A stretch of 29,530 bases of DNA from Candidatus Hydrothermarchaeales archaeon (GTDB lineage Archaea; Hydrothermarchaeota; Hydrothermarchaeia; Hydrothermarchaeales; JAZGAD01). A model generated the notes under the pieces. It saw nothing but the letters and a program-made list of their open reading frames with translations. It did not search any database and was not told the origin of the DNA. A program made the translations under genes and the position numbers. The stretch covers positions 1 through 29,530 of the forward strand of contig JAZGAD010000060.1 in assembly GCA_036444275.1 (NCBI GenBank). Reading direction: 5' to 3'. Positions 3,337-26,653 of this stretch are shown here, one piece after another (positions within the stretch are counted from its first letter, which is position 1; the number at the start of each line of letters is the position of its first letter).

Positions 3337-4548
3337 TTGAGGATGGATTGCGACTTCCATATCCACAGCAGGTATTCCGCTGCTACCTCCAACAAGATGG
3401 ACCTTGAGACCATCTCTAGACAGGCGATCTTGAAAGGACTGAGTGTGGTAGGTACAGGTGATGCCCTGCATTCCAAGTGGCTAGACGAGATAAAATCCCT
3501 TAATCCTTATTCGGAGGGGGTCTACGAGTTAAACGATTGTAAATTCGTCATCACCGTGGAGGTAGAGGATAATAGACGGGTGCACCATGTTATCTTCATC
3601 CCGGATATCGCTTCAGCGGAATCCCTACGCGAATCCCTAGCTAAATTTTCAGTGGACATGGAGCAGGATGGCAGGCCCCACCTTAGGCTTGGTGGAGAGG
3701 AGATAGTGGAGCACGTCGAGGAGGTCGATGGATTAGTGGGCCCATCCCATGCCTTCGTCCCCTGGACCAGTATATACAAGGAATACAATAGCCTGAAGGA
3801 GTGCTATGGTAGTAAAGTTGACAAGATAAAGTTCTTGGAGCTTGGGTTGAGCGCAGATACATACCTCGCGGACCGCATCTCTGAACTTCAGGATATAACC
3901 TTACTCTCTAATTCAGATGCCCATTCACCCTGGCCCCACCGCCTGGGCAGGGAGTTCAACCGCCTAGAAATCAGCGAGGTGAGCTTCCCTGCTATAAGGA
4001 AGGCACTTGAGCGGAAGAACGGACACGGCGTAGTGCTTAATGTCGGCCTAGATCCAAGGTTAGGGAAATATCACCGCACTGCCTGCATAAAGTGCCTAAC
4101 CCACTACAATTTGGAAGAGGCAACACAACTACGCTGGAGGTGCTCTGAGTGCAGGGGCATTCTCAAGAAAGGGGTGACGGACAGAATAGAAGAGCTTGCC
4201 AGCTACACTGCTCCAAGGCATCCCGGCCATAGACCTAAGTACGTGAGGATAGCCCCTCTCGCGGAGATCCTTTCTTTAGCATTGAAGCATCAGATATATT
4301 CTAATAAAATCCAGGAAGCGTGGAAAAAATTGGTCACTACTTGCGGGAGTGAGATAGCTGTACTGATCGATGCCCCTCTAGAAGAGATCACAATAACATC
4401 CGGGGAGAAGGTAGCGGAACTGATTAAGGCTTTTAGGGAGGGGCAATTCGGCATTATAGAGGGCGGCGGTGGAAAGTATGGAAAGGTATTATTCGGGGAG
4501 AAAGCTGAGAAGCTCAAGAGGACACAGACAAAATTGGATGGATTCTAG
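3337..4548 (+). CDS. Endonuclease Q (PHP domain + Zn finger; TIGR00375-like) DNA repair endonuclease
   Basis: DFHIHSRYS, ELGLSAD, SNSDAHSP, RLGREFN, GKYH-CxxC...CxxC-KKGV, GGGGKYG, and a C-terminal PIP-box-like QTKLDGF. Confidence 0.88.
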   Translation: MRMDCDFHIHSRYSAATSNKMDLETISRQAILKGLSVVGTGDALHSKWLDEIKSLNPYSEGVYELNDCKFVITVEVEDNRRVHHVIFIPDIASAESLRESLAKFSVDMEQDGRPHLRLGGEEIVEHVEEVDGLVGPSHAFVPWTSIYKEYNSLKECYGSKVDKIKFLELGLSADTYLADRISELQDITLLSNSDAHSPWPHRLGREFNRLEISEVSFPAIRKALERKNGHGVVLNVGLDPRLGKYHRTACIKCLTHYNLEEATQLRWRCSECRGILKKGVTDRIEELASYTAPRHPGHRPKYVRIAPLAEILSLALKHQIYSNKIQEAWKKLVTTCGSEIAVLIDAPLEEITITSGEKVAELIKAFREGQFGIIEGGGGKYGKVLFGEKAEKLKRTQTKLDGF

Positions 4549-13456: not shown

Positions 13457-14554
13457 TCAGAGTTTTTTGAGCACCTCGATTAACTTATGAATATCGCCCT
13501 CGTCGTTGTATATATGCGGGGAGAACCTTATGTAGTCCACGACCGTTGCGACGACCTTGTTCTTCAACAATTCTTCCTTTGTTGCCTCTTTCTTGATGCT
13601 GACTATACCTGACCTATTCTCCTTGGGGTCTGAGAGCAGCTCCTCCCCTAAATCTGCTAGCTCTTCGGATAGTATAGATGAAAGCTGGAGGACCCTTTTC
13701 TCAACTTTTTTCAAGCCTATTTTTGCCAGGAGCTCTAAAGCTGCCCGCATGCCTAGGAAAGCTGCTATATCCAGGCTACCGAGCTCGAATCTCCTGGCGC
13801 TGTCTGCTACCTCATACTCTGTGGCATTGAATGCTAGTGGTTCCTTAACAGAACGCCATCCCAGCACAGGCGAGCCGTCTAGTAACTCTTCCCTTACGAA
13901 GAAGAAGCCTGATCCGAGGGGCGAGAGAAGCCATTTGTAGCCAGCTGCCGAAAGGAAATCAATCTTTGCTTTCTCCACGTTTAATTCTAACGCTCCCAGT
14001 GATTGAGTGGCATTCACATGGAAGTAGACATCTTGCTCCCTACAAATCCTGCCTATCTCTTCCACATTCAGGCGGAAGCCGTCCCTATACATTACGTGGC
14101 TCAAGGTCACAAGCCGCGTATGCCTGTCGATGTGCTCCTCGACATCTCTAGGGGTGATGCCTTTTTCGCCAGGGATGAACTTCACCTCTACACCCTTGTT
14201 CCTGAGGTTGAGGAAGGGATAGACGTTGGCCGGGAAGTCCACATTGGTTGCCACGACATTGTCTCCTTTCTTCCAATCCAGGAGCAGTGCCACTAGGTTA
14301 ACGCCCTCAGACGTATTTTTGGTGAGTGCTATCTCGCTTTGTTTTGCTCCAACTAACTCTGCTATTCGCCTCCTGCAGTCCTCAACTTCCTCCCCCCACT
14401 TATCGAAGTATGCCGAACCATAGTCCCTTTGCTGTGCGTCGAACCTATTTAGAGCTTCTAGAACCGGCTTCGAGTATGGAGCTAAAGAAGAGGCGTCAAA
14501 GTAGAGGTATTCCCGTGTTATTGGGAAGAGAGCCCTTACCTCTTGAAAGTCCAT
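13457..14554 (-). CDS. Class V PLP-dependent enzyme (cysteine desulfurase / C-S lyase-like fold)
   Basis: YFDASS, NTSEG, DFPAN, SAAGYKWLLSPLGSG (PLP lysine), RFELG, IRFSPHIYN. Confidence 0.85.
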   Translation of the reverse strand: MDFQEVRALFPITREYLYFDASSLAPYSKPVLEALNRFDAQQRDYGSAYFDKWGEEVEDCRRRIAELVGAKQSEIALTKNTSEGVNLVALLLDWKKGDNVVATNVDFPANVYPFLNLRNKGVEVKFIPGEKGITPRDVEEHIDRHTRLVTLSHVMYRDGFRLNVEEIGRICREQDVYFHVNATQSLGALELNVEKAKIDFLSAAGYKWLLSPLGSGFFFVREELLDGSPVLGWRSVKEPLAFNATEYEVADSARRFELGSLDIAAFLGMRAALELLAKIGLKKVEKRVLQLSSILSEELADLGEELLSDPKENRSGIVSIKKEATKEELLKNKVVATVVDYIRFSPHIYNDEGDIHKLIEVLKKL

Positions 14555-15297
14555 TATACTTCCTCCCTAAGTATCCCCCATATCCTTTCTCTGATCTCAA
14601 CAAAAGTCTTGGAGGACCTGCTTCCTTCCCTCGGCCTTGGTAGATCTATATTTACTACCTCTGTTATCCTCGCTGGACGGGAGCTCATCACTGCGACGCG
14701 GTCAGAGAGATAGACAGCCTCGTCTATGCTGTGGGTGACGAAAAGTATAGTCTTCCTCATTTCACCCCATATCCGCAGAAGCTCGTTCTGCAGCTTCTCC
14801 CTCGTCAGAGCGTCCACAGAAGCGAAGGGCTCGTCCATCAGCAGTATCTCCGGGTCGTACGCCAGGACCCTTGCCAGGGCAACCCTCTGCGCCATACCGC
14901 CTGAGAGCTCATAGGGATAGCTGTCCTCGAAGCCCTTTAATCCGACTAGGTCGATGTACTTTTGAGTTATCTTCTTCCTTTCATCCCCGTTGACACCCTT
15001 TATCTCCAAGCCGAATGCGACGTTCTCTTCTACAGTGCGCCAGGGCAGTAGAGCACCTTCCTGGAAGATCATGCCCCTGTCGAAACCTGGCTTAAGCACT
15101 TCCTCCCCGTCTATCATTATAGAACCTTTGCTCGGTCTTTCCAGGCCAGCGACCAAGTTCAGTAGGGTGGTCTTGCCGCACCCCGTGGGACCTACTAGAC
15201 CTAGGAATTCCCCTTCGTCCACCTCTATGGCTAGGTTATCAATTGCTACTAGGTCGTCGAAGCTTTTCCCGATGCCGGAGATGGTGATCTTGGCCAT
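14554..15297 (-). CDS. ABC transporter ATP-binding subunit, TauB/SsuB/NrtD-like
   Basis: GPTGCGKT, FQE.ALLPW.TV, LSGGMAQR, LLMDEPF, VTH, DEAVYLSDR, LPRPR. TAATG overlap with the PLP gene. Confidence 0.92.
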   Translation of the reverse strand: MAKITISGIGKSFDDLVAIDNLAIEVDEGEFLGLVGPTGCGKTTLLNLVAGLERPSKGSIMIDGEEVLKPGFDRGMIFQEGALLPWRTVEENVAFGLEIKGVNGDERKKITQKYIDLVGLKGFEDSYPYELSGGMAQRVALARVLAYDPEILLMDEPFASVDALTREKLQNELLRIWGEMRKTILFVTHSIDEAVYLSDRVAVMSSRPARITEVVNIDLPRPREGSRSSKTFVEIRERIWGILREEV

Positions 15298-15589: not shown

Positions 15590-15620
15590 CTTATCCATCG
15601 AGTTCGAGTTCTAGAATCAG
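15590..15620 (+). repeat. Left copy of the direct repeat flanking the biosynthetic block
   Basis: cttatccatcga-gttcga-gttctagaatcag matches 26548-26572 except for a 6-nt insertion and 1 mismatch. Confidence 0.75.
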
Positions 15621-15700
15621 TCAGAATTAAGACAGCACTCCAACAGCTACTCTGGCAACACTAGACAAGTTTATTTACGTGGTGTATACAAGCTTTGGAT

Positions 15701-16465
15701 ATGAACATAGAGGAGACCCTCAAGAATAGCTTTAAGCTAAGCCTCTATGAAGTTAGGGTATACCTTGCGCTCCTCAGGGGAAGTATGGCTCCCAAGGAGG
15801 CTGCGACAGCATCAAAAGTGCCCTTATCAAGGGTTTATGATACGCTAAAGAGTCTTGAATCAAAGGGCTTCGTGGGGTATAACAATGATAAGTATGAGGC
15901 AGTTTCCCCCGAGATTGCACTGGATGGGAGAATTGCGCAGTTTGAAGCCGAATTTGAGGTAAGTGCGAAAGAACGAAAGGGGAATAAAAAACTGGTTTTA
16001 GAACACCTCAACTCTATGTACTTAAGAGAGTCACCGGCGCAGGAGTTGGTGACGCTGAAAGGCATCTATAGTATTACAAACAAATTCTTAGAGATATTAA
16101 ACGAATCAGAAGAGGTATATATAACCATAAGAAAGGCTTTAGAAGCAAAGGATCTGCTGAAAAAATACTTGGTGAACTCTCAAGCGAATAACAGAAAAAT
16201 CAGGATTCTGATCCCTGGCGGAGCAGAGATTAATGATACAGACAGGGAATTTGCCTCTAGGATAGGACTGAAGATGCGCTATTACGATAACCTCCTCTTT
16301 GACTTGATGGTAGCAGATGGCAGAGATGTCATTATAGGCGTGCCTGACCCTACGAGCAACGAGCTCTACCACTCCATTGCGATATGGATACGGAATCCCT
16401 CGTTTGCCAAAGGGATTCAGGAGTCCCTTGAAAATGTCTGGGAGAATGAAAGCTATACAGGATGA
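15701..16465 (+). CDS. TrmB family transcriptional regulator
   Basis: LSLYEVRVYLALL, VPLSRVYDTLKSLESKGFV (TrmB wHTH), coiled region, C-terminal PLD-like effector domain. TTTATTTA at 15670-15677. Confidence 0.88.
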   Translation: MNIEETLKNSFKLSLYEVRVYLALLRGSMAPKEAATASKVPLSRVYDTLKSLESKGFVGYNNDKYEAVSPEIALDGRIAQFEAEFEVSAKERKGNKKLVLEHLNSMYLRESPAQELVTLKGIYSITNKFLEILNESEEVYITIRKALEAKDLLKKYLVNSQANNRKIRILIPGGAEINDTDREFASRIGLKMRYYDNLLFDLMVADGRDVIIGVPDPTSNELYHSIAIWIRNPSFAKGIQESLENVWENESYTG

Positions 16466-16502
16466 GCATGCGGCCTGCTATTTAACCGACTGTGAGAAAT
16501 CC

Positions 16503-16528
16503 TTAAATACTACCACTTGGTAGTGGTA
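16503..16528 (+). promoter_or_regulatory. TATA box with an adjacent palindromic operator
   Basis: TTAAATA (16503-16509), then a perfect inverted repeat TACCACT-tggt-AGTGGTA (16511-16528) before TTG 16542. Confidence 0.6.
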
Positions 16529-16541
16529 ACAGGGTGGGATA

Positions 16542-17627
16542 TTGAGGCTTAATGTACCTACCAACTGGGATAATGCACTCATAGAAAACATAAGTTCTTT
16601 TCCAGTAGAGTGCATCTATGGGAAACTAGATGAAGATATAATCGGAGGGGGAAGGCCGACCTCTGCTCTTCCAAAGGTCACGAAAGAACATGCAGAAGAG
16701 CACATCAAGTTAGCGCATGCCAATGGTATTGTTTTTAACTATCTCTTGAATTCAGCCTGCTTGGGCAACCTGGAATACTCCGATGAATATAATCAGAAAA
16801 TATTGGAGCATCTGACCTGGATAGAGGGTATAGGTGCGGATTACGTCACTGTTTCTATACCATATCTCATTGAGGTAGTAAAAAAGAGATTCCCAAGCCT
16901 AAAGGTTGTGGCCTCTGTATTCTCCCACATAGAGTCTATACAGCAAGCGCAATTTTATCAGTCCCTAGGTGCAGATGAAATCGTTGTGGTGCAAAGCCAG
17001 AACAGAAACTTTGATTATCTAAGCAAGCTCTCGAAGGTAATAAAAAACTTACAAGTTATTGTCAACAACTGTTGTCTGCTGGGATGCCCATACCGCCGCT
17101 ATCACGCGAACATCAACTCACATGCATCACAGTCTCAACGCCAAGTTAAATCCATTCCAGTTGACTATCCTGTTTCAAGCTGCTGGAGGGCGAGACTCCA
17201 AGATCCTAGTGAGATCATCAAATCCCCATGGATTAGACCCGAGGATTTACACGTCTACGAAGAAATAGGCATCGACAAGTTCAAGCTATCAGGAAGGACA
17301 AAGACCACTGCGTGGATAACCACTGCTGTTAAGGCCTATGCTGAGAGGAGATATGAGGGGAATTTATTCGACATCCTAAGCCTGCCTCATGGAAAGGGGT
17401 CTATCAGCAGGCCAAAGAATATGCCCTTGGTGGATGTTGAGGTTGATAATAACATGCTAAACGATTTCCTGCCGTTCTTTATGCATCAGGATTGCAGCTC
17501 TACAGTATGCAGTCAATGCGGTTACTGCCCCGGCATAGCTGAGAAGGCAGTCAAGGTCAACCCTGAAGAGGTAAAACTAGCTATCGAGAGATACAACGAT
17601 GCATTGGAAGGCCTCATTAGGAGGTAG
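16542..17627 (+). CDS. U32 family Fe-S protein (putative O2-independent hydroxylase), subfamily distinct from UbiU/V
   Basis: FNYLLNSAC, NRN, NNCCLLGCPYR.YH, SSC, WIRPEDL..Y, FKLSGR (U32 KxxGR), C-terminal CxxxxCxxCxxC. Confidence 0.8.
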   Translation: MRLNVPTNWDNALIENISSFPVECIYGKLDEDIIGGGRPTSALPKVTKEHAEEHIKLAHANGIVFNYLLNSACLGNLEYSDEYNQKILEHLTWIEGIGADYVTVSIPYLIEVVKKRFPSLKVVASVFSHIESIQQAQFYQSLGADEIVVVQSQNRNFDYLSKLSKVIKNLQVIVNNCCLLGCPYRRYHANINSHASQSQRQVKSIPVDYPVSSCWRARLQDPSEIIKSPWIRPEDLHVYEEIGIDKFKLSGRTKTTAWITTAVKAYAERRYEGNLFDILSLPHGKGSISRPKNMPLVDVEVDNNMLNDFLPFFMHQDCSSTVCSQCGYCPGIAEKAVKVNPEEVKLAIERYNDALEGLIRR

Positions 17628-17631
17628 AATA

Positions 17632-18435
17632 TTGAGGCTTGGTTTTTTTACTAATGCATTCAGATTTTTTCCTCGGGATTATGCCCTTAAAAGCATAAGC
17701 GATCTCGGCTATGAGGGGATCAATCTCTGGGCAAAGGGGGATCATGTAACGCCATTTGATGGAGAGAAAAAGTGGCTGGCCATAAAGGAGGAAATAGAGT
17801 CATATGGCCTAGAGCTATATGCTGTTAGCGCACACCTCGACTTTGTCTCTCCAGATGCTGAGAAGAGGGAGAGGGAATACAAGAAATTCATGGGTGTCTT
17901 AGACCTTGCCCACACCCTTGGGATAGACCAGGTTCAAACAGCTTCAGGAGGCCTATATGAAGACTTCTCTTTCGAGAAACAAGGCGAGTACTTTGTCTCT
18001 ATGATGAATGAATTCGGCAAGGTAGCTGAAGATAAGGGGATCATCATAGGGCTTGAGCCAGAGCCTGAGAAGTGGATGAGCACGCCTGAGCAGACAATCG
18101 ATTTAATTAAGACTCTGCGCTATCCGGTGTTCAAGGCTGTCGTAGATCTGGGGCATGCCTTTGGGGTAAATGAAACACCCAAGAGTTATATCCACAAGTT
18201 CAAGGACTACCTGCTCAATGTCCATGTTGACGATGTAAACAAAGATGATTTCCCACACAGGCACCTTATACCTGGAGATGGGGACGTGGACTTTGTAGAT
18301 GTCTTTAAGACGCTGCGAGAAGTGGGATACAAGGATTGGCTTACCGTCGAGTTGAACAAACACAACGAGGACCCTGATACTGCAGCTCGTCTTGCAATGG
18401 AGTATATGAGTAGGTTTGAAGAACACTGGAAGTGA
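17632..18435 (+). CDS. Sugar-phosphate isomerase/epimerase (xylose isomerase-like / AP2 TIM barrel)
   Basis: GLEPEP, DLGH, HVDD, H.HLIPGDGDVDF, LTVEL metal motifs. TTG 17632 follows GGAGGT. Confidence 0.85.
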   Translation: MRLGFFTNAFRFFPRDYALKSISDLGYEGINLWAKGDHVTPFDGEKKWLAIKEEIESYGLELYAVSAHLDFVSPDAEKREREYKKFMGVLDLAHTLGIDQVQTASGGLYEDFSFEKQGEYFVSMMNEFGKVAEDKGIIIGLEPEPEKWMSTPEQTIDLIKTLRYPVFKAVVDLGHAFGVNETPKSYIHKFKDYLLNVHVDDVNKDDFPHRHLIPGDGDVDFVDVFKTLREVGYKDWLTVELNKHNEDPDTAARLAMEYMSRFEEHWK

Positions 18436-20057
18436 AGGGTATATTCACACTACTAGGTGGAGAGATGGTTGATCAGAAGAAACCAAGGAGTATCTATCTA
18501 AGAGCTGCATGGTATGGTGAAACCCCTGATTTTAATCCATATAACGAGATTTCAAGGAACTTAAAACAAGCTGTTTCCATGGGGAAGATGTCGCATCCAG
18601 ACAATCTGGAATCCCTTATGAAATTACTATATGAAACCAACCGTAGATATGGTGTCTTAACGCAGGAAGTAAAAGAGAAGATTGACTCCATAGCAAGTGG
18701 TGTAGCGATAACAGCCCACCAGCCTATTTATCTCGGCGGCCCGTCTTTAATCTTGAATAAGATGGCGCTTGCTTCGGAGGTCTCTAAGATCTCAGAGCTA
18801 TCTCCTTTATTCTTCCTCGCCGACTTTGATGGGGTTCACAAAGAGATTACTCATACACACCTCCCCAGTTTAAGTCCAGCAGGCATTGCACTCTTACTTC
18901 CAAGGGATATCATAAAGGATTATGAAGGCTGTCCAGTCTATACTCTGCCTTTACCTAGTGAGGCACATTTAACGGATACATTGGAAAGAATCAGACAGAA
19001 CTATGGAGAGACAATCAAAAAGGCATTTTCATCTCCAGCTGAGAAGAGGTTGTATATCGAACGCTTGGAAGAAGCTTTGACCGTGGTTAGGACACAATAT
19101 TATGCTTCTAAAAACTTCAGCGAATGGACCATGCGTATCCTAGCTAATATCGCGAACATTACTGGTGAACTCAACATCATGTTTCTTGAATCGTCTTCTA
19201 GGGAATTCAGGAGACTCCTCCAAGGAGGTTTCGAGTATCTAATGGGGGATAAAAACCTTGATACCTTTATTAAAACCATAAACAGGGTCCACGATCAGCT
19301 TAAGGAAAACAATATCACTCCAACTCTGAGAAAGCGGGACAAGAAATATGTTCCGTTCTTTTATGAGTGCCAGAGCCAGGGATGTAACCGGAGGAGGGTC
19401 TTACTGGAGCGTGAGAATACCATATTAAAGGGAAGATGCAAGAAATGTGGTACTGCATATGGGTTTTCAAAGAATGAACTCTCAGATATAGTGGAGGATA
19501 TAAGCCCCCGTATCGACTCAAGACTGCTCGTTTCCTCCTTTGCTATCCCCCTGTCTGTGCAGATCACAGGTGGTGGCGAGACCGACTACATGGCGCAGGT
19601 GCTTCCTGCTATGCGTTCCATAAAGGTTGATCCCCCCACCACCTTGCTCTATAGTAGGATATACTATAACAATGTAATAAGAGCCCATCTAGAGGTAAAA
19701 ATAAAGCAGTTACTTGAAAAATATGGGTTGCCAGAGTCAGAGATATATACTTGCTTAGGGAGGTACATGAATAATGCAACAAGGGAGGAGGCTATGATTC
19801 CCCTAACCCTAGCTATAGAACAGGAATACAGAACACTTAAAAAACTGGAGGAGATCGCTAAAGAACGCGACGTATCCCTATACATCTCATCTGCCCATGG
19901 AAGCTATTCCAAAGAGAAGGTAGGGCAGGAGATATCATGGAATTGGATTGATCTAGCGGTATCCTCAGGCGTATCCGATCTCATAAACATATATACACGG
20001 TTTTATAATGCAGAGACAATACCGGGTGCATGCTTCTTTGCAAACACGTGCAGGTGA
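18432..20057 (+). CDS. bshC: BshC-like (bacillithiol cysteine-adding enzyme family) ligase
   Basis: TAHQPIYLGGP...NK (cf. BshC GQQ.G..GP...K), PLFFLADFD..HKEI (cf. PVFW...DHD..EI), ISPR...R, GGGETDYMAQV (cf. GGPGE.AY.AQ). About 540 aa and clustered with bshB1. Confidence 0.65.
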   Translation: MKGIFTLLGGEMVDQKKPRSIYLRAAWYGETPDFNPYNEISRNLKQAVSMGKMSHPDNLESLMKLLYETNRRYGVLTQEVKEKIDSIASGVAITAHQPIYLGGPSLILNKMALASEVSKISELSPLFFLADFDGVHKEITHTHLPSLSPAGIALLLPRDIIKDYEGCPVYTLPLPSEAHLTDTLERIRQNYGETIKKAFSSPAEKRLYIERLEEALTVVRTQYYASKNFSEWTMRILANIANITGELNIMFLESSSREFRRLLQGGFEYLMGDKNLDTFIKTINRVHDQLKENNITPTLRKRDKKYVPFFYECQSQGCNRRRVLLERENTILKGRCKKCGTAYGFSKNELSDIVEDISPRIDSRLLVSSFAIPLSVQITGGGETDYMAQVLPAMRSIKVDPPTTLLYSRIYYNNVIRAHLEVKIKQLLEKYGLPESEIYTCLGRYMNNATREEAMIPLTLAIEQEYRTLKKLEEIAKERDVSLYISSAHGSYSKEKVGQEISWNWIDLAVSSGVSDLINIYTRFYNAETIPGACFFANTCR

Positions 20058-20061
20058 TGAG

Positions 20062-20907
20062 ATGAATACGCTCTTGGTTATTCCTGTTTACCAGGAAGAA
20101 GAGAATATCTCGAAAGTCCTCTATGATATTGAAGAATCGAGAGCGAATGGCATACCTTTTGATATACTAATCATCGATGATGGATCAACAGATTCTACTC
20201 CAGTTATACTTGATAGGCTCCAGAAGGACATTACATTTGATATCCTCATGCACAGAGAGAATGCTGGATATGGAAATGCCCTAAAATCAGGGTTCGATTC
20301 AGCGATTCAAGGGGGCTACGATACTATTATCACAATGGATGCTGATGAACAGCATGATCCAGATTTCCTGAAATCTTTTTTTGCAACAAAAGGCGCGGAT
20401 ATCCTCAGCGGCTCTAGGTATCAAGACATAGTCTTAGGGACAAATAGCATGCCCCCTGACCGTTTTTTGATTAACATGATAATGACGACTATAGTTAATC
20501 ACTTGACTGCCTATGATCTAACAGATTCCTTCTGCGGTATGAAGGCCTATAACGTGGATGCCTTAAAGAAATTAGATCTTACGGGGCTTGCAGAAGGATA
20601 TGAAATGCCTCTCCAGCTTCTTTTTCAAGCTCGCTTTAATAACCTCTCCATCATGGAGATACCGGTACCCTTAATATACAAGACACATGAGGTACTGGCA
20701 CCAGCTCCAAAACGCTTGGAGGCATACATTAACACAGTAAGAGATGAGGTTGTAAGAAGTAAGAAACAGCATATAGTAGAACTATTAGAGAAGGCACTTG
20801 AAAGAAGGGACGGCTTGGTGAATATCGCAGTAGAAACACATGCAATGCTAGAGGACATAATAGGTGCTCAACTGCCGTGTCCTCGATACCTTAGAGGTGG
20901 ACTATGA
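20062..20907 (+). CDS. Glycosyltransferase family 2 (DPM1/ArnC-like)
   Basis: IPVYQEEENI, IDDGSTDST, HRENAGYG.A...GF, TMDADEQH, GSRY, TDSFCGMKAY, EIPV. ATG 20062 follows GGTGA. Confidence 0.9.
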   Translation: MNTLLVIPVYQEEENISKVLYDIEESRANGIPFDILIIDDGSTDSTPVILDRLQKDITFDILMHRENAGYGNALKSGFDSAIQGGYDTIITMDADEQHDPDFLKSFFATKGADILSGSRYQDIVLGTNSMPPDRFLINMIMTTIVNHLTAYDLTDSFCGMKAYNVDALKKLDLTGLAEGYEMPLQLLFQARFNNLSIMEIPVPLIYKTHEVLAPAPKRLEAYINTVRDEVVRSKKQHIVELLEKALERRDGLVNIAVETHAMLEDIIGAQLPCPRYLRGGL

Positions 20908-21590
20908 AATTGGATGTCTTGGTTGTGGGAGCGCATCCAGATGATGCAGAACTAGGGGCTGGGGGTACGATTGCAAAGCTGGAAAAACAAGGACGGAGGG
21001 TAGGAATCCTTGACCTATCTGATGGTGAACCGACGCCTCATGGAACGCCTGAGATAAGGAGGAAGGAAGCAGAAGAAGCAGCAAAAATCTTAGGGGTTGA
21101 TGTCAGGGAGATACTTGGATTAGAGAATAGGAAGATCATCGATAGCATTGAGGCAAGAAAAGAGATAGCAAATATCATAAGGAAGTATAAGCCTGAGGTG
21201 ATTATCACACATCCAAAGGATGAGAGCCACCCAGATCATATTGTAGCCTACAACCTGGTATTTGCATCCAGTTTCTATGCCAGATTAACGAAGTGGCCGC
21301 AGGCAAGGAAACCATGGGAGGTTAAAAGGATATTCCACTTCCCGGGGGGGCACCAAAGGGTAAACAGGAAGGTCTCGTTTATAGTTGATATCAGTGATTT
21401 CATCGAACAGAAGATAAAGGCACTAGAATGCTATAAATCGCAGCTCATAGAGAACGTGAAGAACCGTGAGCTTCTGGAGATAATCCCGGCTGCGGCAAAG
21501 TATTATGGTTCAATGATAGGCAGGAGCTATGGAGAAGCGTTCATCTGCGAGGAAGAGATAGGGGTAGAAGACCTACTGGATATCATATAG
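20904..21590 (+). CDS. bshB1: N-acetylglucosaminyl deacetylase BshB1 (PIG-L family)
   Basis: GAHPDDAELG.GGTIAK, ILDLSDGEPTPHGT.E.R..EA..AA.ILGV, HPDH, VDISDF..K..AL.CYKSQ, YGEAF. Confidence 0.85.
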   Translation: MKLDVLVVGAHPDDAELGAGGTIAKLEKQGRRVGILDLSDGEPTPHGTPEIRRKEAEEAAKILGVDVREILGLENRKIIDSIEARKEIANIIRKYKPEVIITHPKDESHPDHIVAYNLVFASSFYARLTKWPQARKPWEVKRIFHFPGGHQRVNRKVSFIVDISDFIEQKIKALECYKSQLIENVKNRELLEIIPAAAKYYGSMIGRSYGEAFICEEEIGVEDLLDII

Positions 21591-21599
21591 GGAATTACC

Positions 21600-22619
21600 A
21601 TGGTCGAGTTAGTTGTTCCCACTCCGAATCTAGAGGTATTAAAAGCTGCATTGGATAGTGGGGCAGATTCGGTATATGTGCCGATAACAAAGAAAGTATC
21701 GATACGCTTTGGATCCAGTTTTTTCTCACTTGGTGAGATGGAGAAGGCAGTAGGATATGCCCATGATCTAGGAAAAAAAGCCTATGTGGTTGTCAATGCC
21801 CATGTAAGGGATAGGGGTCTTGAAGATTTTCAGAGGACTGTAGAGTCTATCTATAGTGCAGAAGCAGACGGCGTAGTGGTGAGCAGCTTCGGTGTTATAG
21901 ACTGGATAAACAAGCATTATCCAATAAAGATCATCGCCTCAGGTGTTGCATCTGCTATCTCCCCAGAGGATGCATTGTTCTTAAAATCCCTCGGTGTTAC
22001 GAGGGTGATAATCCCTCGCCTTCGATCCCTGCAGTCGATAAAAGAATACAAGGAGAAAACCAACATGGAGGTTGAAGTATACGTAAGTGGCTTCATCTGC
22101 AGTGCATGGGATGGAAAACGCTGTTTCCTGCCTTCTCTGCTCTATGATGTGGGCACAGAATCTGGTTTGTGCATCCCGAAGGATGTTAAGCGTGTTTCAG
22201 GACTTTATTTAGCTGGTGATCATCCAATACGTTCTGTTAGGCTTGGAACAGATAGCTTTTCTACCAGGCACGGAAGCGTAGGCATAGAGGGCCAGGGTTT
22301 AATCACCCCATGTATCGGCGATTATATAGTAAAATGCGGTGATGATTCCATTAAAGCACATCTCATGGAATTCGAAGTACAGTGTGACCTAGCTGCGATT
22401 CCTTATCTGATCAAAAACAACGTGGACAGCCTGAAGGTTGTCGCAGAGGTAAAATCCCTGGATTATATTAAGAAGATGGTTGAGGTTTGGAGGAAGGCTA
22501 TAGATGCATACGAGGCTTCTCCTGAGTCATGGAAAGTGGAAGAAGGGTGGATAAGGGCGCTGCAGGCCGCATATAACCTGCCGATTAGGCTTGATTCATA
22601 TTTCAAGGGGGGATGCTGA
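21600..22619 (+). CDS. ubiU: U32 family Fe-S protein, UbiU-like
   Basis: ELVVP..NL..LKAALDSGADSVY, GVTRVIIPR, EVEVYV.G. Cys spacing C-X7-C-X15-C-X46-C, with the last Cys in TPCIGDY (cf. E. coli UbiU C-X6-C-X16-C-X38-C, PTLCKGRY). Confidence 0.72.
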   Translation: MVELVVPTPNLEVLKAALDSGADSVYVPITKKVSIRFGSSFFSLGEMEKAVGYAHDLGKKAYVVVNAHVRDRGLEDFQRTVESIYSAEADGVVVSSFGVIDWINKHYPIKIIASGVASAISPEDALFLKSLGVTRVIIPRLRSLQSIKEYKEKTNMEVEVYVSGFICSAWDGKRCFLPSLLYDVGTESGLCIPKDVKRVSGLYLAGDHPIRSVRLGTDSFSTRHGSVGIEGQGLITPCIGDYIVKCGDDSIKAHLMEFEVQCDLAAIPYLIKNNVDSLKVVAEVKSLDYIKKMVEVWRKAIDAYEASPESWKVEEGWIRALQAAYNLPIRLDSYFKGGC

Positions 22620-23485
22620 TGGAGATAACAGTAACCGCATATACTTATCCAGAAGTTGAAAAATGGGTTAAAAGTGGAGCAGACAGCATAAGGTTTGGTG
22701 AGCCTCACTGCTACCTAAAAGCACTGCGAGACTGGGATGAAAAAAAAATTAGAAAGGCATGTGCACTAATAGAATCGTCGGGTAAAAAAGCCCAGTTGCA
22801 GTTGCTGGTTGCACCATCTTCAAGGGAGGAAATCGAGTATACGAGAAACCTATGCAATCTTGCCTCATCTAATGGTATCGACCTAGTGCTAGGCTCCCTA
22901 GGCATGCTTAAGATAACTAATAGCTGTGTGGCTGGTAGCTATATCAAGGCTTATAACCGCCTCGACCTAGAGGTTCTGAGTAGACATGGAGTTAGGATAG
23001 TATCCATATCACCTGACCTGGCAAAGGAGGAGATAGAGGGGTTGATAAGAAATGCACCCTCAATGTTGTTTGAGTACCAGATTCATGGTCCAGTAAGCCT
23101 CATGACGAGTTGGAAGTGCTTCCTAAGGCAGATGTGCCCTGCTGAAGGGAAAGGGAACTGCAGCTATGTGTGCACAGGTTATATACGCATGCACAGCCTT
23201 AGTGGAGAAGAACTCTTTGATGTAAATGGCAACTCGCTTGCAACTTCTAGGGATCTATGCATGCTTCCTCATCTAGGGGAGCTTTTTGATATGGGGGTCT
23301 CTATCGGACTGATAGAAACGAGGAATAGGGAATACGATAATTGCATTATAGATGTCTACAAAGAAGCAGTTCAAGACCCTGGTAATTTTGAATACCTCAA
23401 GAGACTGCGTGGAAATTTCTTGGACGGTTGGTACCATGGGAAAGAGGGGAATAGCTTTTGCTTAGGGAGGAAAGTAGACGAATAG
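22613..23485 (+). CDS. ubiV: U32 family Fe-S protein, UbiV-like
   Basis: N-terminal FGEPHC (cf. UbiV LGEAVC), HG.V.L..S..C-X13-C-X3-C, F.VNG, C-terminal DGWYHG (cf. NGYW). Overlaps the UbiU-like gene. Confidence 0.75.
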   Translation: MLMEITVTAYTYPEVEKWVKSGADSIRFGEPHCYLKALRDWDEKKIRKACALIESSGKKAQLQLLVAPSSREEIEYTRNLCNLASSNGIDLVLGSLGMLKITNSCVAGSYIKAYNRLDLEVLSRHGVRIVSISPDLAKEEIEGLIRNAPSMLFEYQIHGPVSLMTSWKCFLRQMCPAEGKGNCSYVCTGYIRMHSLSGEELFDVNGNSLATSRDLCMLPHLGELFDMGVSIGLIETRNREYDNCIIDVYKEAVQDPGNFEYLKRLRGNFLDGWYHGKEGNSFCLGRKVDE

Positions 23486-24064
23486 TATATCCCAACATAG
23501 ATGCGTCGCTATTGCTGGAAGTAAGCCTGCCTCTGAGTATATCAAGCCCCATGCCAATGCTAATATGAAATCGATGAAACCAGGCATCAGGCCTACCCCT
23601 GATCCCCTTATAGCGCTCAGCAATGAAGTGACGAGGATGGCATGCCTTACATTGAAATACTTGCAAAGAGTCTCCTGAACATAGCCCCGGTAGAACAACT
23701 CCATAGATACTACGACTAATATCAAAGCTGGAAAAGATATTAATAGCGAAATCCTCTGCCAAGGTTCAACGAAGTAACTCCACTTGTCAGTGCCTATAGG
23801 GATTTGACTCCCTGCAACAAAAGAGAACCCTAGTCTCATAGCAAGATAGAATAAACACATCGAGAAAATCCCTACGCCCAGCCACTTCCAATGGCCATGC
23901 TTTACCCAATGATACTCTCTAATGCTTGCTATCCCTAATACAGCTAACCCTGCGAAGTATATTATATTAGAATATGGACGGGGACTAAGAGGTGTATATA
24001 AAAGATAGAAGAAGAATATCACAGGGAGGTTTATGATTACAATCCTAGCTAATTTATTATCCAT
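23462..24064 (-). CDS. CPBP/Abi (type II CAAX protease) family membrane protein with degenerate motifs
   Basis: Many TM segments; ELFYRGYVQ and GLLPAIATHLCWD are present, but the EE and FxxxH motifs are altered. Confidence 0.7.
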   Translation of the reverse strand: MDNKLARIVIINLPVIFFFYLLYTPLSPRPYSNIIYFAGLAVLGIASIREYHWVKHGHWKWLGVGIFSMCLFYLAMRLGFSFVAGSQIPIGTDKWSYFVEPWQRISLLISFPALILVVVSMELFYRGYVQETLCKYFNVRHAILVTSLLSAIRGSGVGLMPGFIDFILALAWGLIYSEAGLLPAIATHLCWDILFVYFPP

Positions 24065-24073
24065 TTTTGGTCC

Positions 24074-24931
24074 TTAAGTGTATAGATCTATAAAGGTAAA
24101 GAGGAATACCAAGGAGCTTATGGCAACATTTACACTGAAGGTCTTCCTCCAGACATCTGTAAACTCTGATAGTATATGATATTGATAAATCTGAAGTACC
24201 CCCATAATGAGGATACCTGATAGGTAAGCTGTACCTAATTCTAGGATATAGTACAATGAGAGGAATAAGAGCAAGGAAGCGACAGCAAATCCCTTAGCTA
24301 TCCAGAAACTTTTGTCTGGACCAAGCCAGGCAGGGATCGAATGTAGTTTCTGAGTACGATAAAACTCCATGTCGCGTATATCCTGGATGATATCAAAACC
24401 TGTCATCCAAAATGCAACTGCTAGGGATAGCACAATGGCTGGAAATTCTATTCTGCCGCTCACAGCTATCCATCCTCCAAATGGGGAAAGACCCAAGATT
24501 ACACCTAACAAGATGTGCAACCCCGAAGTAAAGCGCTTGGTATAGGGGTAAATGCATATGAGTAGGATTACGAAGGGGGATAGCTTGAAGCATAACGGAT
24601 TTAATTTGTATGCAGCGAATGCTAGCAGAGCAAAGGATATTAAAGCAAAAACAAGTACTTCGAGAGGGTCGAGTACCCCCGTAGGAATGAACCGATCTTT
24701 TGTCCTTAGATTTAGCGCATCTATCTCACGGTCAATAAACCTATTTATCGCCATTCCTCCGCTTCTAGCACTTGCCAATGCCAGAAGTATGAACATAACC
24801 TGGTGTTTTGTTGGTAATCCCCCTGCGGCCAATACTGCACCCATTAGAGCAAAGGGAAGCACCAGTAGAATACGCTCGAATTTGGTCATCTCAAAGAGCG
24901 TCTTGATCTTCACATGTTGTATTCTTTCCAT
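24074..24931 (-). CDS. ubiA: UbiA family aromatic polyprenyltransferase (MqnP / 4-HB prenyltransferase-like)
   Basis: LPFA, ARS..MA.NRFIDREIDA.N.RT..R.IP.G, YPYTKRFT, GGWIAV, W..GFDII, multiple TM helices. Confidence 0.88.
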   Translation of the reverse strand: MERIQHVKIKTLFEMTKFERILLVLPFALMGAVLAAGGLPTKHQVMFILLALASARSGGMAINRFIDREIDALNLRTKDRFIPTGVLDPLEVLVFALISFALLAFAAYKLNPLCFKLSPFVILLICIYPYTKRFTSGLHILLGVILGLSPFGGWIAVSGRIEFPAIVLSLAVAFWMTGFDIIQDIRDMEFYRTQKLHSIPAWLGPDKSFWIAKGFAVASLLLFLSLYYILELGTAYLSGILIMGVLQIYQYHILSEFTDVWRKTFSVNVAISSLVFLFTFIDLYT

Positions 24932-26358
24932 CTCCTATCCACTAGATCGACAACATCCGGGCTCATATTTAATGCCTCTGGCCATTCTCTTTCATGTCCC
25001 TCGTCCCTTCCCTTCATAGTTGCATCTATACCTATCTTTGATCCTAGATTCGGCAGTGGAGCCGCGTGATCAAGGGTATCAACAGGCGCTCTGTCTATCA
25101 CAATAATATCCCTTTTGGGGTCTATCCTGGTTGAAACAGCCCACGTTACCTCACCTAAGTCCTGGATGTTTACATCTTCATCCACAACAACTATGCACTT
25201 GGTAGAGGAAAGCTGCCCCAAGCCCCATAATGCAAACATAACCTTTTTTGCCTGCCCAGGATACCTCTTCTTAATGGATACTATGCAGAGGTTGTGGACA
25301 GCGCTCTCTATTGGCAGATTTATATCTCTTATCTCTGGAAGCTGGAACCTTATTAGAGGGAGGAACATCCTTTCTATCGCTTTTCCCATGTATGAATCTT
25401 CCTTAGGGGGTCTACCAGTCAGCGTTGCAGGATATATCGGCTTCTCCCTGTGAGTTATACACGTTACATGGAAGACCGGAAAGAGGTCTGGTAGGGAATA
25501 ATAACCGGTGTGGTCTCCGAAAGGACCTTCACTTCTCCGTTCATTTGGATCAATATAACCCTCTAAAACGATTTCGGCATTGGCAGGCACCTCTAGATCG
25601 ACGGTCTCGCACTTCACTAACTCTACAGGTTTCTTCCTCAAAATGCCTGCGAATACCATCTCATCAAAACCGTCTGGCAGTGGAGCCGGTGCAGATAGCA
25701 TGGTTGCAGGGTCACCGCCTAATGCTACTGCAACCTCCAAGGGCCTTCCCAGTTCCTCAGCCTTACGATAGTGCGTCGCCCCATGCTTTTGAATATGCCA
25801 GTGCATACCAGTGGTTTTTGCATCGAATACCTGCATGCGGTACATCCCAACGTTTCTCTCTCCAGTCTCTGGATCCTTAGTGAAGACTAGAGGGAGTGTT
25901 ATGAACCGCCCACCATCCTTAGGCCAGAACTTTGGTATTGGAAATTTACTAAGGTCTACCTCATCACCTTTAAGAATAATATCCTTGCAGGGCCCACTCT
26001 TCACAACCTTTGGAAAAATAGACAAGACATCCCTTAGTTTAGAGACACCCTTTATCTTACCCACTAAACCGGATGGTATCTCTGGTTTAATCAACTCGAC
26101 AATGCCTTTGCCTATGTTCTCTAAATCTTCTACGTCTAATGCTACTTTTATTCGTTGTATTGAGCCAAAGATGTTCGCTAGGATAGGTATATCAAAACCT
26201 TTTACATTTTCAAAGAGCACTGCCGGTCCATTACTTTTAACCAACCTATCCAAGATCTCTGTAACCTCAAGTTCTGGATTAACCTCTGTTTTGATCCTCC
26301 GTAACTCTCCCTTATTCTCAAGGAATTTAATAAAATCCCTTAAGTCACGATATGCCAC
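24910..26358 (-). CDS. ubiD: UbiD family prFMN-dependent (de)carboxylase (MqnL / menaquinone decarboxylase-like)
   Basis: DLRDFI..LE..GEL, WPKDGGRFITLP, RNVGMYRMQ, GMHW..QK.G, EGPFGDHTGYYS, KRYPGQAKKVM, GSKIGIDAT. GTG start with GGAGG. Confidence 0.93.
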   Translation of the reverse strand: MAYRDLRDFIKFLENKGELRRIKTEVNPELEVTEILDRLVKSNGPAVLFENVKGFDIPILANIFGSIQRIKVALDVEDLENIGKGIVELIKPEIPSGLVGKIKGVSKLRDVLSIFPKVVKSGPCKDIILKGDEVDLSKFPIPKFWPKDGGRFITLPLVFTKDPETGERNVGMYRMQVFDAKTTGMHWHIQKHGATHYRKAEELGRPLEVAVALGGDPATMLSAPAPLPDGFDEMVFAGILRKKPVELVKCETVDLEVPANAEIVLEGYIDPNERRSEGPFGDHTGYYSLPDLFPVFHVTCITHREKPIYPATLTGRPPKEDSYMGKAIERMFLPLIRFQLPEIRDINLPIESAVHNLCIVSIKKRYPGQAKKVMFALWGLGQLSSTKCIVVVDEDVNIQDLGEVTWAVSTRIDPKRDIIVIDRAPVDTLDHAAPLPNLGSKIGIDATMKGRDEGHEREWPEALNMSPDVVDLVDRRWKEYNM

Positions 26359-26421
26359 TATAAGACCTCCATATTTGGTGTGTTACCGATATAAGCAACA
26401 CTCCATAGTATGAAGATTCTA

Positions 26422-26452
26422 ATACTACTATTTGAAAGTTATGTAGTAGTAT
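26422..26452. promoter_or_regulatory. Palindromic operator upstream of the ubiD operon
   Basis: Perfect 9-bp inverted repeat ATACTACTA-N13-TAGTAGTAT. Shares AATACTAC with the site at 16506-16513. Confidence 0.6.
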
Positions 26453-26547
26453 CATGTCCTAGAAAAAGATCCTAGCCAAGTTTATCAGCATCCACCACGG
26501 CGGCCTCCTTCAACCTGTTCCTAATCCCCGGCATAGCCAATGTGACC

Positions 26548-26572
26548 CTTATCCATCGAATTCTAGAATCAG
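26548..26572 (+). repeat. Right copy of the direct repeat flanking the biosynthetic block
   Basis: cttatccatcga-attctagaatcag; see 15590-15620. Confidence 0.75.
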
Positions 26573-26653
26573 CCATTCATCTCGCTTAGGTTTGTGTAAG
26601 CACCTTGTTAAAGAAAAATGACTATTATGGGAAAATGATAAGGGGGACAACCT

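Follow-up and report, generated by a model that had tools for sequence, protein, structure and literature searches.

The stretch of DNA considered here, 29,530 nucleotides (nt) long and hereafter called the window, is contig C60 (JAZGAD010000060.1) of a metagenome-assembled genome (MAG) of a Candidatus Hydrothermarchaeales archaeon. The genome comprises 1.49 Mb on 61 contigs and is 81% complete. The subject of this work is a block of eleven genes, about 11 kb long, in the second half of the window (Table 1). Seven of these genes form a plus-strand operon encoding a U32-family protein (U32a), a xylose-isomerase-like TIM barrel, a BshC-like ligase, a family 2 glycosyltransferase (GT2), a BshB1-type deacetylase, and a UbiU-like and a UbiV-like protein. 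Three others form a convergent minus-strand operon (UbiD, UbiA and CPBP), and a gene for a TrmB-family regulator precedes the plus operon. On the evidence of sequence comparison, the locus is a composite in which inherited late-menaquinone genes stand beside a lineage-specific, chimeric plus operon. The latter appears so far to be unique and can be divided into three putative sub-modules: U32a with the TIM barrel; the BshC-like, GT2 and BshB1 proteins as builder of a cysteinyl-glucosamine (Cys-GlcN) unit; and a UbiU/V-like heterodimeric [4Fe-4S] protein. No described pathway with this gene set was found in the literature searched, in agreement with the statement of a first-pass annotation of the window made from the sequence alone.

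Table 1. Features of the block and its borders in order of position (profile scores in bits, with the family or equivalog cut-off where given)
Feature	Position	Strand	Remarks
Left direct-repeat copy	15590-15623	.	Contains TTCTAGAA palindrome; ~70-105 nt upstream of TrmB start
TrmB-family regulator	15695-16465	+	PF01978 52 bits; TrmBL2 59 bits vs cut-off 530
Plus-operon promoter	16503-16524	+	TATA-like TTAAATA, then palindrome TACTAC-N5-GTAGT (16508-16524), upstream of U32a
U32a, U32-family protein	16542-17627	+	Pfam match only residues 86-149
AP_endonuc_2 xylose-isomerase-like TIM barrel	17599-18435	+	PF01261 145 bits
BshC-like ligase	18432-20057	+	PF10079 50 bits vs cut-off 27
GT2 glycosyltransferase	20008-20907	+	PF00535 83 bits
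BshB1-type GlcNAc-adduct deacetylase (PIG-L)	20904-21590	+	TIGR04001 209.4 vs 182.5; PF02585 107 bits
UbiU-like U32 Fe-S protein	21600-22619	+	NCBIfam equivalog NF047963 146.4 vs cut-off 440
UbiV-like U32 Fe-S protein	22613-23485	+	NCBIfam equivalog NF047965 70.7 vs cut-off 275
CPBP/Rce1-like membrane protein	23462-24064	-	PF02517 35.5 bits; four to five hydrophobic segments; last gene of minus operon
UbiA-family aromatic prenyltransferase	24074-24931	-	TIGR01475 (ubiA_other) 243.8 vs cut-off 180.8
UbiD-family decarboxylase	24910-26358	-	TIGR03701 634.1 vs cut-off 495.9
UbiD promoter-region palindrome	26423-26451	.	ATACTACTA-N13-TAGTAGTAT; longer version
27-codon 3' remnant with stop, paralog of a 418-aa gene on contig C10	26460-26555	-	Ends at right repeat, upstream of UbiD
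Right direct-repeat copy	26548-26575	.	Partner of 15590-15623

The two operons and their gene families

Genes were called with Pfam and NCBIfam profiles, the scores being read against family or equivalog cut-offs. All eleven genes were confirmed at their positions, and with them the gene content and family assignments of the first-pass annotation. The tight coupling it had described for the plus operon is also real: from U32a onward, the genes overlap or lie no more than 9 nt apart. The likely start of the TIM barrel is a TTG at 17632 and that of GT2 an ATG at 20062, each 4 nt past the preceding stop. The translation-start regions of U32a (16533-16550) and the TIM barrel (17623-17640) are identical at 16/18 positions, including the TTG start and the first two codons. 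The convergent operons meet in a 24-nt overlap between the 3' ends of the UbiV-like and CPBP genes.

A misassembly or contamination as the source of this arrangement was ruled out by independent contigs. Both operons are covered by contigs of four runs from four studies at 82-99% identity; one such contig runs from the native ABC flank into the U32a promoter, and a second crosses the border between the UbiV-like and CPBP genes. The same genome bin includes contig C25 (3188 bp), an 88% identical variant of window 16541-19726, with U32a, the TIM barrel and the 5' part of BshC in the same order. It probably stems from a co-occurring strain rather than from a paralogous copy. Between the window and C25, the ratio of non-synonymous to synonymous substitution rates (dN/dS) is 0.09 for U32a, 0.07 for the TIM barrel and 0.15 for the BshC-like gene. 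Because of these values (0.07-0.15) and the independent contigs, the genes are considered functional and the assembly sound; the genes are under purifying selection and are present in other samples. A joint between 25041 and 16402 in run X3 was set aside, as it consists of about 30 letters at low likeness and is missing from the main table of joints.

To judge by its profile score, the UbiD of the minus operon is an MqnL equivalog, the menaquinone decarboxylase of the futalosine pathway. The phylum sample comprised 38 species genomes, i.e., 37 besides the host, and 23 of the 37 possess a UbiD ortholog (52-73% identity). Of 16 loci retrieved from relatives, 5 have UbiA close to UbiD (tblastn matches with less than 40% query coverage being dropped). 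In one relative, G005, the UbiD/UbiA pair is part of a full mqn cluster with MqnC (502 bits, cut-off 428), MqnE (470, cut-off 435), MenG/UbiE (252, cut-off 158) and two PF02621 (MqnA/D) genes above the Pfam cut-off. The window UbiA reaches 182-233 bits with the MqnP models NF041584/5/6, whose cut-offs are 375-430, and the UbiA of the G005 cluster likewise stays below them at 237-286 bits. The window UbiA is the sole such gene in the host genome and is 37-43% identical to the relatives' UbiA proteins, which share 46-83% among themselves. By these comparisons, it is the ortholog of the relatives' MqnP-like gene, more diverged. The same kind of evidence indicates that UbiD has been inherited vertically and that the minus operon (UbiD, UbiA and CPBP) is the lineage's own late menaquinone module. 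A blastp comparison of 9 relatives' loci did not reveal the CPBP gene beside UbiA/UbiD.

A UbiX/MqnM flavin prenyltransferase is encoded elsewhere in the host genome (C13:3055-3573; 246.6 bits, cut-off 108.9). Near it lies the gene of a second UbiD paralog of 417 amino acids (aa) (C13:968-3579), which we take to resemble the UbiD-type decarboxylase of the archaeal mevalonate pathway. It was dropped as a candidate member of the system, since nearly every relative has such a paralog, 31-41% identical to the window UbiD. In the available text of Ravcheev and Thiele (2016, PMC4746308), MqnP, MqnL and MqnM are predicted to catalyse late steps of the futalosine pathway, and mqnP/L/M are reported only from genomes with the Mqn pathway.

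Neither PF02621 (MqnA/D) nor a chorismate lyase was found in the 81%-complete host genome; chorismate mutase is present, which together with UbiX provides for the supply of oxygen donor and cofactor. In the same genome, only CofG/CofH of F420 synthesis match the MqnC/E queries, and the closest approach to MenG is a protein of 90.7 bits (cut-off 158.35). The remark of the first-pass annotation that a UbiE/UbiG-type methyltransferase is absent holds for the block. PF02621 occurs in 23 of the 37 other phylum genomes, and 21 of the 23 genomes with an MqnL ortholog possess it. The lack of head-group genes in the host is suggestive, not proof. One relative, G007 (97% complete), has MqnL and UbiA without PF02621 and without the U32 operon. 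At its locus (L152, contig C10:1-18000), an ABC transporter whose binding protein is NMT1/THI5-like lies between MqnL and UbiA. This transporter may serve the uptake of a precursor; its ATPase shares 46% identity with the lone ABC ATPase of the window (14554-15297).

For the seven genes of the plus operon, no orthologs were found in the 37 other phylum genomes. The BshC-like protein had 0 real matches in 40 relatives, and the UbiU-like protein only two weak partial matches (26-34% identity) among the 37. Within the host genome, U32 genes are confined to the window cluster, the C25 copy aside. The family of U32a is large, with over 1500 relatives, and the closest of these are 46-53% identical; over its whole length, U32a shows this identity to 26 U32 proteins (P0024-P0049) and 91% identity to P0023 from another public assembly. 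Eight cysteines are invariant, namely C73, C178, C182, C214 and those of a C-terminal CX4CX2CX2C motif. The best solved relative of the TIM barrel is MJ1311 (3wqo, E 1e-13), followed by IolI and IolE; in the literature searched, MJ1311 received no more than a passing mention in one paper. The idea that this protein is a 3-dehydroshikimate dehydratase supplying protocatechuate was discarded, as only MJ1311, IolI and IolE matched at E 1e-5. A protein atlas offers only the generic names "U32 peptidase" and "sugar phosphate isomerase/epimerase".

In BLASTP comparisons, the UbiU-like protein is 27% identical to Escherichia coli UbiU over 325 aa (E 9e-39), and the UbiV-like protein is 22% identical to E. 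coli UbiV (E 2e-6). The positions of the eight [4Fe-4S] ligand cysteines of UbiU and UbiV are those given in the accessible part of bioRxiv 10.1101/587956. C167, C175, C191 and C238 of the UbiU-like protein align with C169, C176, C193 and C232 of UbiU; C33, C169, C183 and C187 of the UbiV-like protein align with C39, C180, C193 and C197 of UbiV. Modelling predicts that the two proteins form a heterodimer: the complex scored 0.90 against 0.00 for the best control, at least 83% of the contacts recur between runs, and the pLDDT of the partners is at least 84. The mark set for this score is reached by 51 of 78 solved complexes and by 2 of 108 mismatched pairs. In a set of 1.84 billion representatives, no more than 20 proteins reach E 1e-30 with the UbiU-like protein. 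Its nearest relatives (P0154-P0161) are 31-39% identical; an identical protein is encoded on a 54.8-kb contig. The CX7CX15C spacing of the UbiU-like protein recurs beyond the ligand cysteines (C238, C246, C262), which hints at a second metal site.

The match of BshB1 to TIGR04001 covers residues 2-220 and lies above the equivalog cut-off. The BshC-like protein scores 55.4 bits with TIGR03998, below the cut-off of 265.8, and passes that of PF10079. A phmmer search against the PDB gave no match; for the AlphaFold2 model (pLDDT 71), the top PDB fold in Foldseek is B. subtilis BshC (4wbd, E 5.9e-15, TM 0.53). The protein carries the four-cysteine insert of an archaeal subfamily, and these four cysteines are invariant in 19/19 sequences. 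Its nearest relatives in very large protein collections are 32-38% identical. The NCBIfam models and PDB chains nearest to GT2 are polyprenyl-phosphate sugar synthases (PpgS, Dol-P hexose transferase, DPMS 5mlz at E 1e-12, ArnC and GtrB), all models being far below cut-off. BshA, a family 4 glycosyltransferase (GT4; TIGR03999, cut-off 273.7), was not found in the 81%-complete host genome; the highest-scoring GT4 there (204.5 bits) belongs to a glycan cluster that includes an O-antigen polymerase. With an inverting GT2 in place of the retaining GT4 BshA, the acceptor or the linkage should differ from that of bacillithiol.

The BshC-like family was also followed at 80 loci (L004-L083) from Bathyarchaeia, Asgard lineages and a few bacterial MAGs. 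For these counts, tblastn matches with less than 40% query coverage were dropped, and the count was repeated without the filter. A PIG-L gene lies within about 1.5 kb of the BshC-like gene in 53/80 loci (tblastn). For the clustering of neighbours, here and at the U32a-like loci described below, open reading frames (ORFs) of at least 90 or 80 aa were chosen greedily without overlap. At the BshC-like loci, this yielded GT4 at 59 loci, PIG-L at 48, an aminotransferase at 41, Amidohydro_2 at 26, a DinB/mycothiol-S-transferase-like protein at 20 and Thioredoxin_9 at 14. Among the GT4 proteins, one representative qualifies as a BshA equivalog (390 bits against 273.7). With this BshA equivalog, PIG-L, a BshC-like protein with the invariant four-cysteine insert, Amidohydro_2, DinB-like and Thioredoxin_9 genes, the conserved archaeal cluster looks, by its gene families, like a full bacillithiol-type system. 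Homologs of BshA and BshC have been noted before in archaea, mostly in Asgard lineages, and the available text of PMC7278568 states that bacillithiol has never been detected in archaea.

The related palindromes which the first-pass annotation had placed in both promoters are present. TACTAC..GTAGT occurs at only two sites of the 29.5-kb window, against 0.11 expected (three matches, as the second site reads on both strands). At 16 loci of relatives, the 250 nt preceding UbiD contain no palindrome of this type.

A possible joint pathway and its rivals

The reading preferred here, tentatively and at somewhat less than even confidence, is that the two operons are co-regulated and act on a prenylated aromatic compound, with the U32 proteins providing O2-independent hydroxylation and the Bsh-like trio making a Cys-GlcN unit. 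In this proposal, we infer the co-regulation, the substrate and every reaction, and likewise whether one product or two would arise. Both operons would be controlled via the common TACTAC..GTAGT operator and serve one substrate class. UbiA would prenylate, and MqnL decarboxylate, an aromatic acid other than the usual futalosine product; an unusual acid is proposed on the ground that searches of the host genome revealed neither MqnA, C, D and E nor MenG. O2-independent hydroxylation of the prenylated ring would fall to the UbiU/V-like pair, perhaps together with U32a, and prephenate would donate the oxygen, as it does when ubiquinone is made anaerobically. The trio would assemble Cys-GlcN, either as a soluble thiol or as a group on a ring hydroxyl.

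A single product, a prenylated polyhydroxy-aromatic compound capped with GlcN-Cys, may be formed, though we consider this unlikely. The idea is kept alive by the presumed co-transcription of U32 and Bsh-like genes, the common promoter motif and the apparent lack of normal head-group genes. In its most far-reaching form, which we regard as unlikely, the lineage would have lost the futalosine head-group genes and MenG and rebuilt a membrane redox lipid. The MqnP-like enzyme and MqnL would then work on another aromatic acid, the UbiU/V-type heterodimer and the third U32 protein would hydroxylate the ring without O2, and GT2, BshB1 and the BshC-like protein would cap a hydroxyl with Cys-GlcN, resulting in a membrane-anchored thiol-quinol.

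Several observations weigh against cooperation of the two operons. The first-pass annotation had tentatively assigned all modules to one pathway and named their failure to co-occur in other genomes as evidence against it; in the loci compared, Bsh-like and quinone or U32 genes were found together nowhere, which by that yardstick speaks against a conserved joint pathway. Relatives of U32, UbiA, UbiD, the TIM barrel or GT2 lie within 10 kb at 0/80 BshC-like loci, and TIM, Bsh, UbiA or UbiD relatives at 0/34 U32a-like loci, although many of these loci are short contigs, where absence within 10 kb often amounts to absence from the contig. The UbiU-like gene was met in 0/5 genomes behind BshC-like loci and in 0/301 of the Asgard genomes searched (E 1e-25). 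The modules are combined at no other locus compared, and comparative genomics therefore gives no independent support for a link. Instead of quinone genes, the U32a-like loci (L084-L117, metagenome contigs with U32a-like genes 33-42% identical to U32a) carry genes of B12-binding radical-SAM proteins (61 ORFs, 24/34 loci), PMT_2 GT-C transferases (13/34) and small GT2s (4/34). GDSL hydrolases flank them too, and the U32a-like genes are often tandem paralog pairs interleaved with the radical-SAM genes.

Further points of this kind come from the window itself and from the host. Each of the three sub-modules is contiguous, as expected if independent cassettes had simply been joined. The palindrome was defined after it had been sighted and is not enriched genome-wide, where 7 sites compare with 9.3 after shuffling. 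The UbiU-like and UbiV-like proteins score far below their NCBIfam equivalog cut-offs, UbiT/SCP2 (PF02036) was not found in the 81%-complete host genome, and the accessible part of bioRxiv 10.1101/587956 reports true UbiT/U/V only from ubiquinone-making proteobacteria. The position of BshB1 above its equivalog cut-off makes a small soluble N-acetylglucosamine (GlcNAc) acid a better-fitting substrate than a lipid. Finally, as the host genome is 81% complete, the missing mqn and menG genes could lie in its unassembled part.

The main rival, to which we give a modest chance short of that of cooperation, takes the adjacency of the operons as incidental. The plus operon would be a stand-alone pathway for a soluble, bacillithiol-like thiol (Cys-GlcN-X), with the TIM barrel and U32 proteins making or modifying the aglycone, and MqnL/UbiA would make menaquinone or salvage a precursor. 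This is consistent with the equivalog score of BshB1 and with the thiol-type clusters in which archaeal BshC-like genes occur elsewhere (GT4 at 59/80 loci, PIG-L at 48/80, DinB at 20/80, one BshA equivalog). The inositol enzymes IolI and IolE among the solved relatives of the TIM barrel recall the inositol aglycone of mycothiol. The isolation of the modules from each other at the 80 and 34 loci agrees with it as well, and G007, too, retains MqnL and UbiA while lacking PF02621 and the U32 operon. However, a DinB-type thiol transferase was not found in the 81%-complete host genome, and the palindrome is common to both promoters while lacking from the relatives' UbiD promoters. The eight cysteine ligands and the paired architecture of UbiU/V are also retained, and the only known substrates of UbiU/V are, in the available text of PMC10990095, prenylphenols, with prephenate as oxygen donor. 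These points count against the rival.

An Arn-like, lipid-linked sugar pathway is improbable. Here, GT2 would place GlcNAc on polyprenyl (dolichyl) phosphate, BshB1 would deacetylate it and the BshC-like protein would add cysteine, giving a membrane-anchored thiol or a donor for envelope modification, with the U32 proteins and the TIM barrel modifying the sugar or the lipid. The nearest named models and structures of GT2 are all polyprenyl-phosphate sugar synthases, and U32a relatives occur near GT2, PMT_2 GT-C and B12 radical-SAM genes at the frequencies given above, but every such GT2 match is far below cut-off, and no membrane helix is predicted for GT2. Moreover, the block holds no GT-C transferase or flippase, and BshB1 scores as the equivalog of an enzyme with a soluble substrate. 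Very improbable is the view that the three U32 proteins are RNA hydroxylases of the TrhP/RlhA type, or serve some other housekeeping function, and share no more than transcription with the thiol genes. In its favour, TrhP is the best NCBIfam match of U32a and the second-best of the UbiU-like protein, and the available text of PMC10990095 describes the majority of U32 subfamilies as uncharacterised. Against it, these TrhP matches reach 25.5 and 114.6 bits where the cut-off is 534, and both the top match and the arrangement of cysteines correspond to UbiU/UbiV. Moreover, only 2/37 other phylum genomes match the UbiU-like protein, both weakly, which would be odd for a housekeeping RNA modification.

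Direct repeats and the question of an island

The direct repeat reported to bracket the block is present. Over its 28 nt, the two copies differ at 2 positions, and the left copy has a further 6 nt inserted; a 19-nt pattern derived from it, chosen post hoc, has only these two sites in the window against 0.07 expected. Both copies adjoin signs of change. A contig of run X1 (98% identical) departs from the window sequence at 15603, inside the left copy, and joins this position to 16497, with 34 other letters replacing 893 nt. This is the contig that connects the ABC flank with the U32a promoter. The TrmB gene is therefore strain-variable, and the regulator is not a fixed part of the block. At the other end, the gene remnant of 96 nt is 89.6% identical to C10:14175-14270, the C10 gene (13002-14258) being without a Pfam family. 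As it ends exactly at the right copy, it points to a past rearrangement there.

From these repeats, the whole 11-kb block might be taken for a mobile island integrated by site-specific recombination, with the 28-nt repeats as attachment (att) sites; the gene remnant at the right copy, the break of the X1 variant inside the left one and the absence of the plus operon from relatives would suit this view. We consider it a very slim possibility. UbiD and UbiA inside the block are vertically inherited and common to relatives, and the Pfam scan found no integrase or transposase family in the block, nor does it hold a tRNA target. The G+C content of the block (0.42-0.47) matches that of its flanks (0.45-0.51 upstream, 0.39-0.46 downstream), and the X1 variant lacks the TrmB segment only, the block being otherwise kept. 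Thus, of the usual marks of a genomic island, the repeats are present, but a mobility gene and a G+C shift are not, and the "self-contained island" of the first-pass annotation has to be given up.

An empty site joining the ABC gene to orf180, the downstream flank, was not found; the sole genome of the same family, G001, has the flanking gene only on a contig that ends there. Its ortholog of the flanking aminotransferase (65% identity) stands at the very start of the contig. For orf180, there was no match in 5 relatives. Farther upstream in the window (3337-4548), directly after TrpE/G/D/F genes, lies a 403-aa ORF without a Pfam family at E 0.001.

Significance and comparison with known systems

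If the two operons cooperate, the role of U32 Fe-S hydroxylases, whose link with ubiquinone is so far confined to Proteobacteria, would extend to the synthesis of a prenyl-aromatic lipid in an anaerobic archaeon. Late menaquinone enzymes could be re-usable after loss of the futalosine head-group route, and a bacillithiol-type Cys-GlcN unit could be built by a GT2 on a new acceptor. Any one of the three would add to the anaerobic quinone and low-molecular-weight thiol chemistry of archaea. Should the product be a thiol-quinol, it would represent a lipid class not yet described, and the U32 proteins would be the first U32 ring hydroxylases in a quinone-type pathway outside Proteobacteria. More soberly, the plus operon offers seven compactly arranged, presumably co-transcribed genes, kept by purifying selection, with which uncharacterised U32 subfamilies could be tested, as could the BshC reaction, which to our knowledge has never been reconstituted.

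Compared with bacillithiol biosynthesis by BshA, BshB1 and BshC in Bacillus and with the archaeal clusters, the window likewise combines a BshB1 equivalog and a protein of BshC fold with a glycosyltransferase, but here a GT2 takes the place of the GT4 BshA. With its four-cysteine insert, the BshC-like protein falls into the same archaeal subfamily as those of Bathyarchaeia and Asgard lineages, from which it is set apart by its low identity even to the nearest relatives. Unlike those clusters, the trio has no DinB-type transferase or Thioredoxin_9 as a neighbour, and it is flanked by U32 genes, an arrangement seen at none of the 80 other loci.

In the Arn system, the GT2 ArnC acts on undecaprenyl phosphate, followed by the deformylase ArnD and the GT-C transferase ArnT; the de-N-acetylation of GlcNAc-phosphatidylinositol in glycosylphosphatidylinositol (GPI) synthesis is comparable. 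The window resembles this logic in that a GT2 of the polyprenyl-phosphate sugar synthase type is directly followed by a de-N-acylase. It differs by the lack of a GT-C transferase, by a de-N-acylase that is a BshB1 equivalog and by the BshC-like ligase in the set.

With the late futalosine pathway, the locus shares an MqnL equivalog as UbiD and an ortholog of the mqn-cluster UbiA, and UbiX is present in the genome. By contrast, MqnA, C, D, E and MenG were not detected in the 81%-complete host genome, the window UbiA is unusually diverged, and U32 and Bsh-like genes, not mqn genes, stand beside it.

The UbiU/UbiV-like pair differs from E. coli UbiU-UbiV by its low identity (27% and 22%), its sub-cut-off scores, the lack of a detected UbiT/SCP2 in the host genome, its archaeal host and the menaquinone-type rather than ubiquinone-type prenyltransferase and decarboxylase beside it. 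It resembles the E. coli pair in the adjacency and order of the two genes, in the lengths of their products (339 and 290 aa, compared with 331 and 292 aa), in the alignment of all eight [4Fe-4S] cysteines and in the predicted heterodimer, and it adjoins a UbiA/UbiD pair.

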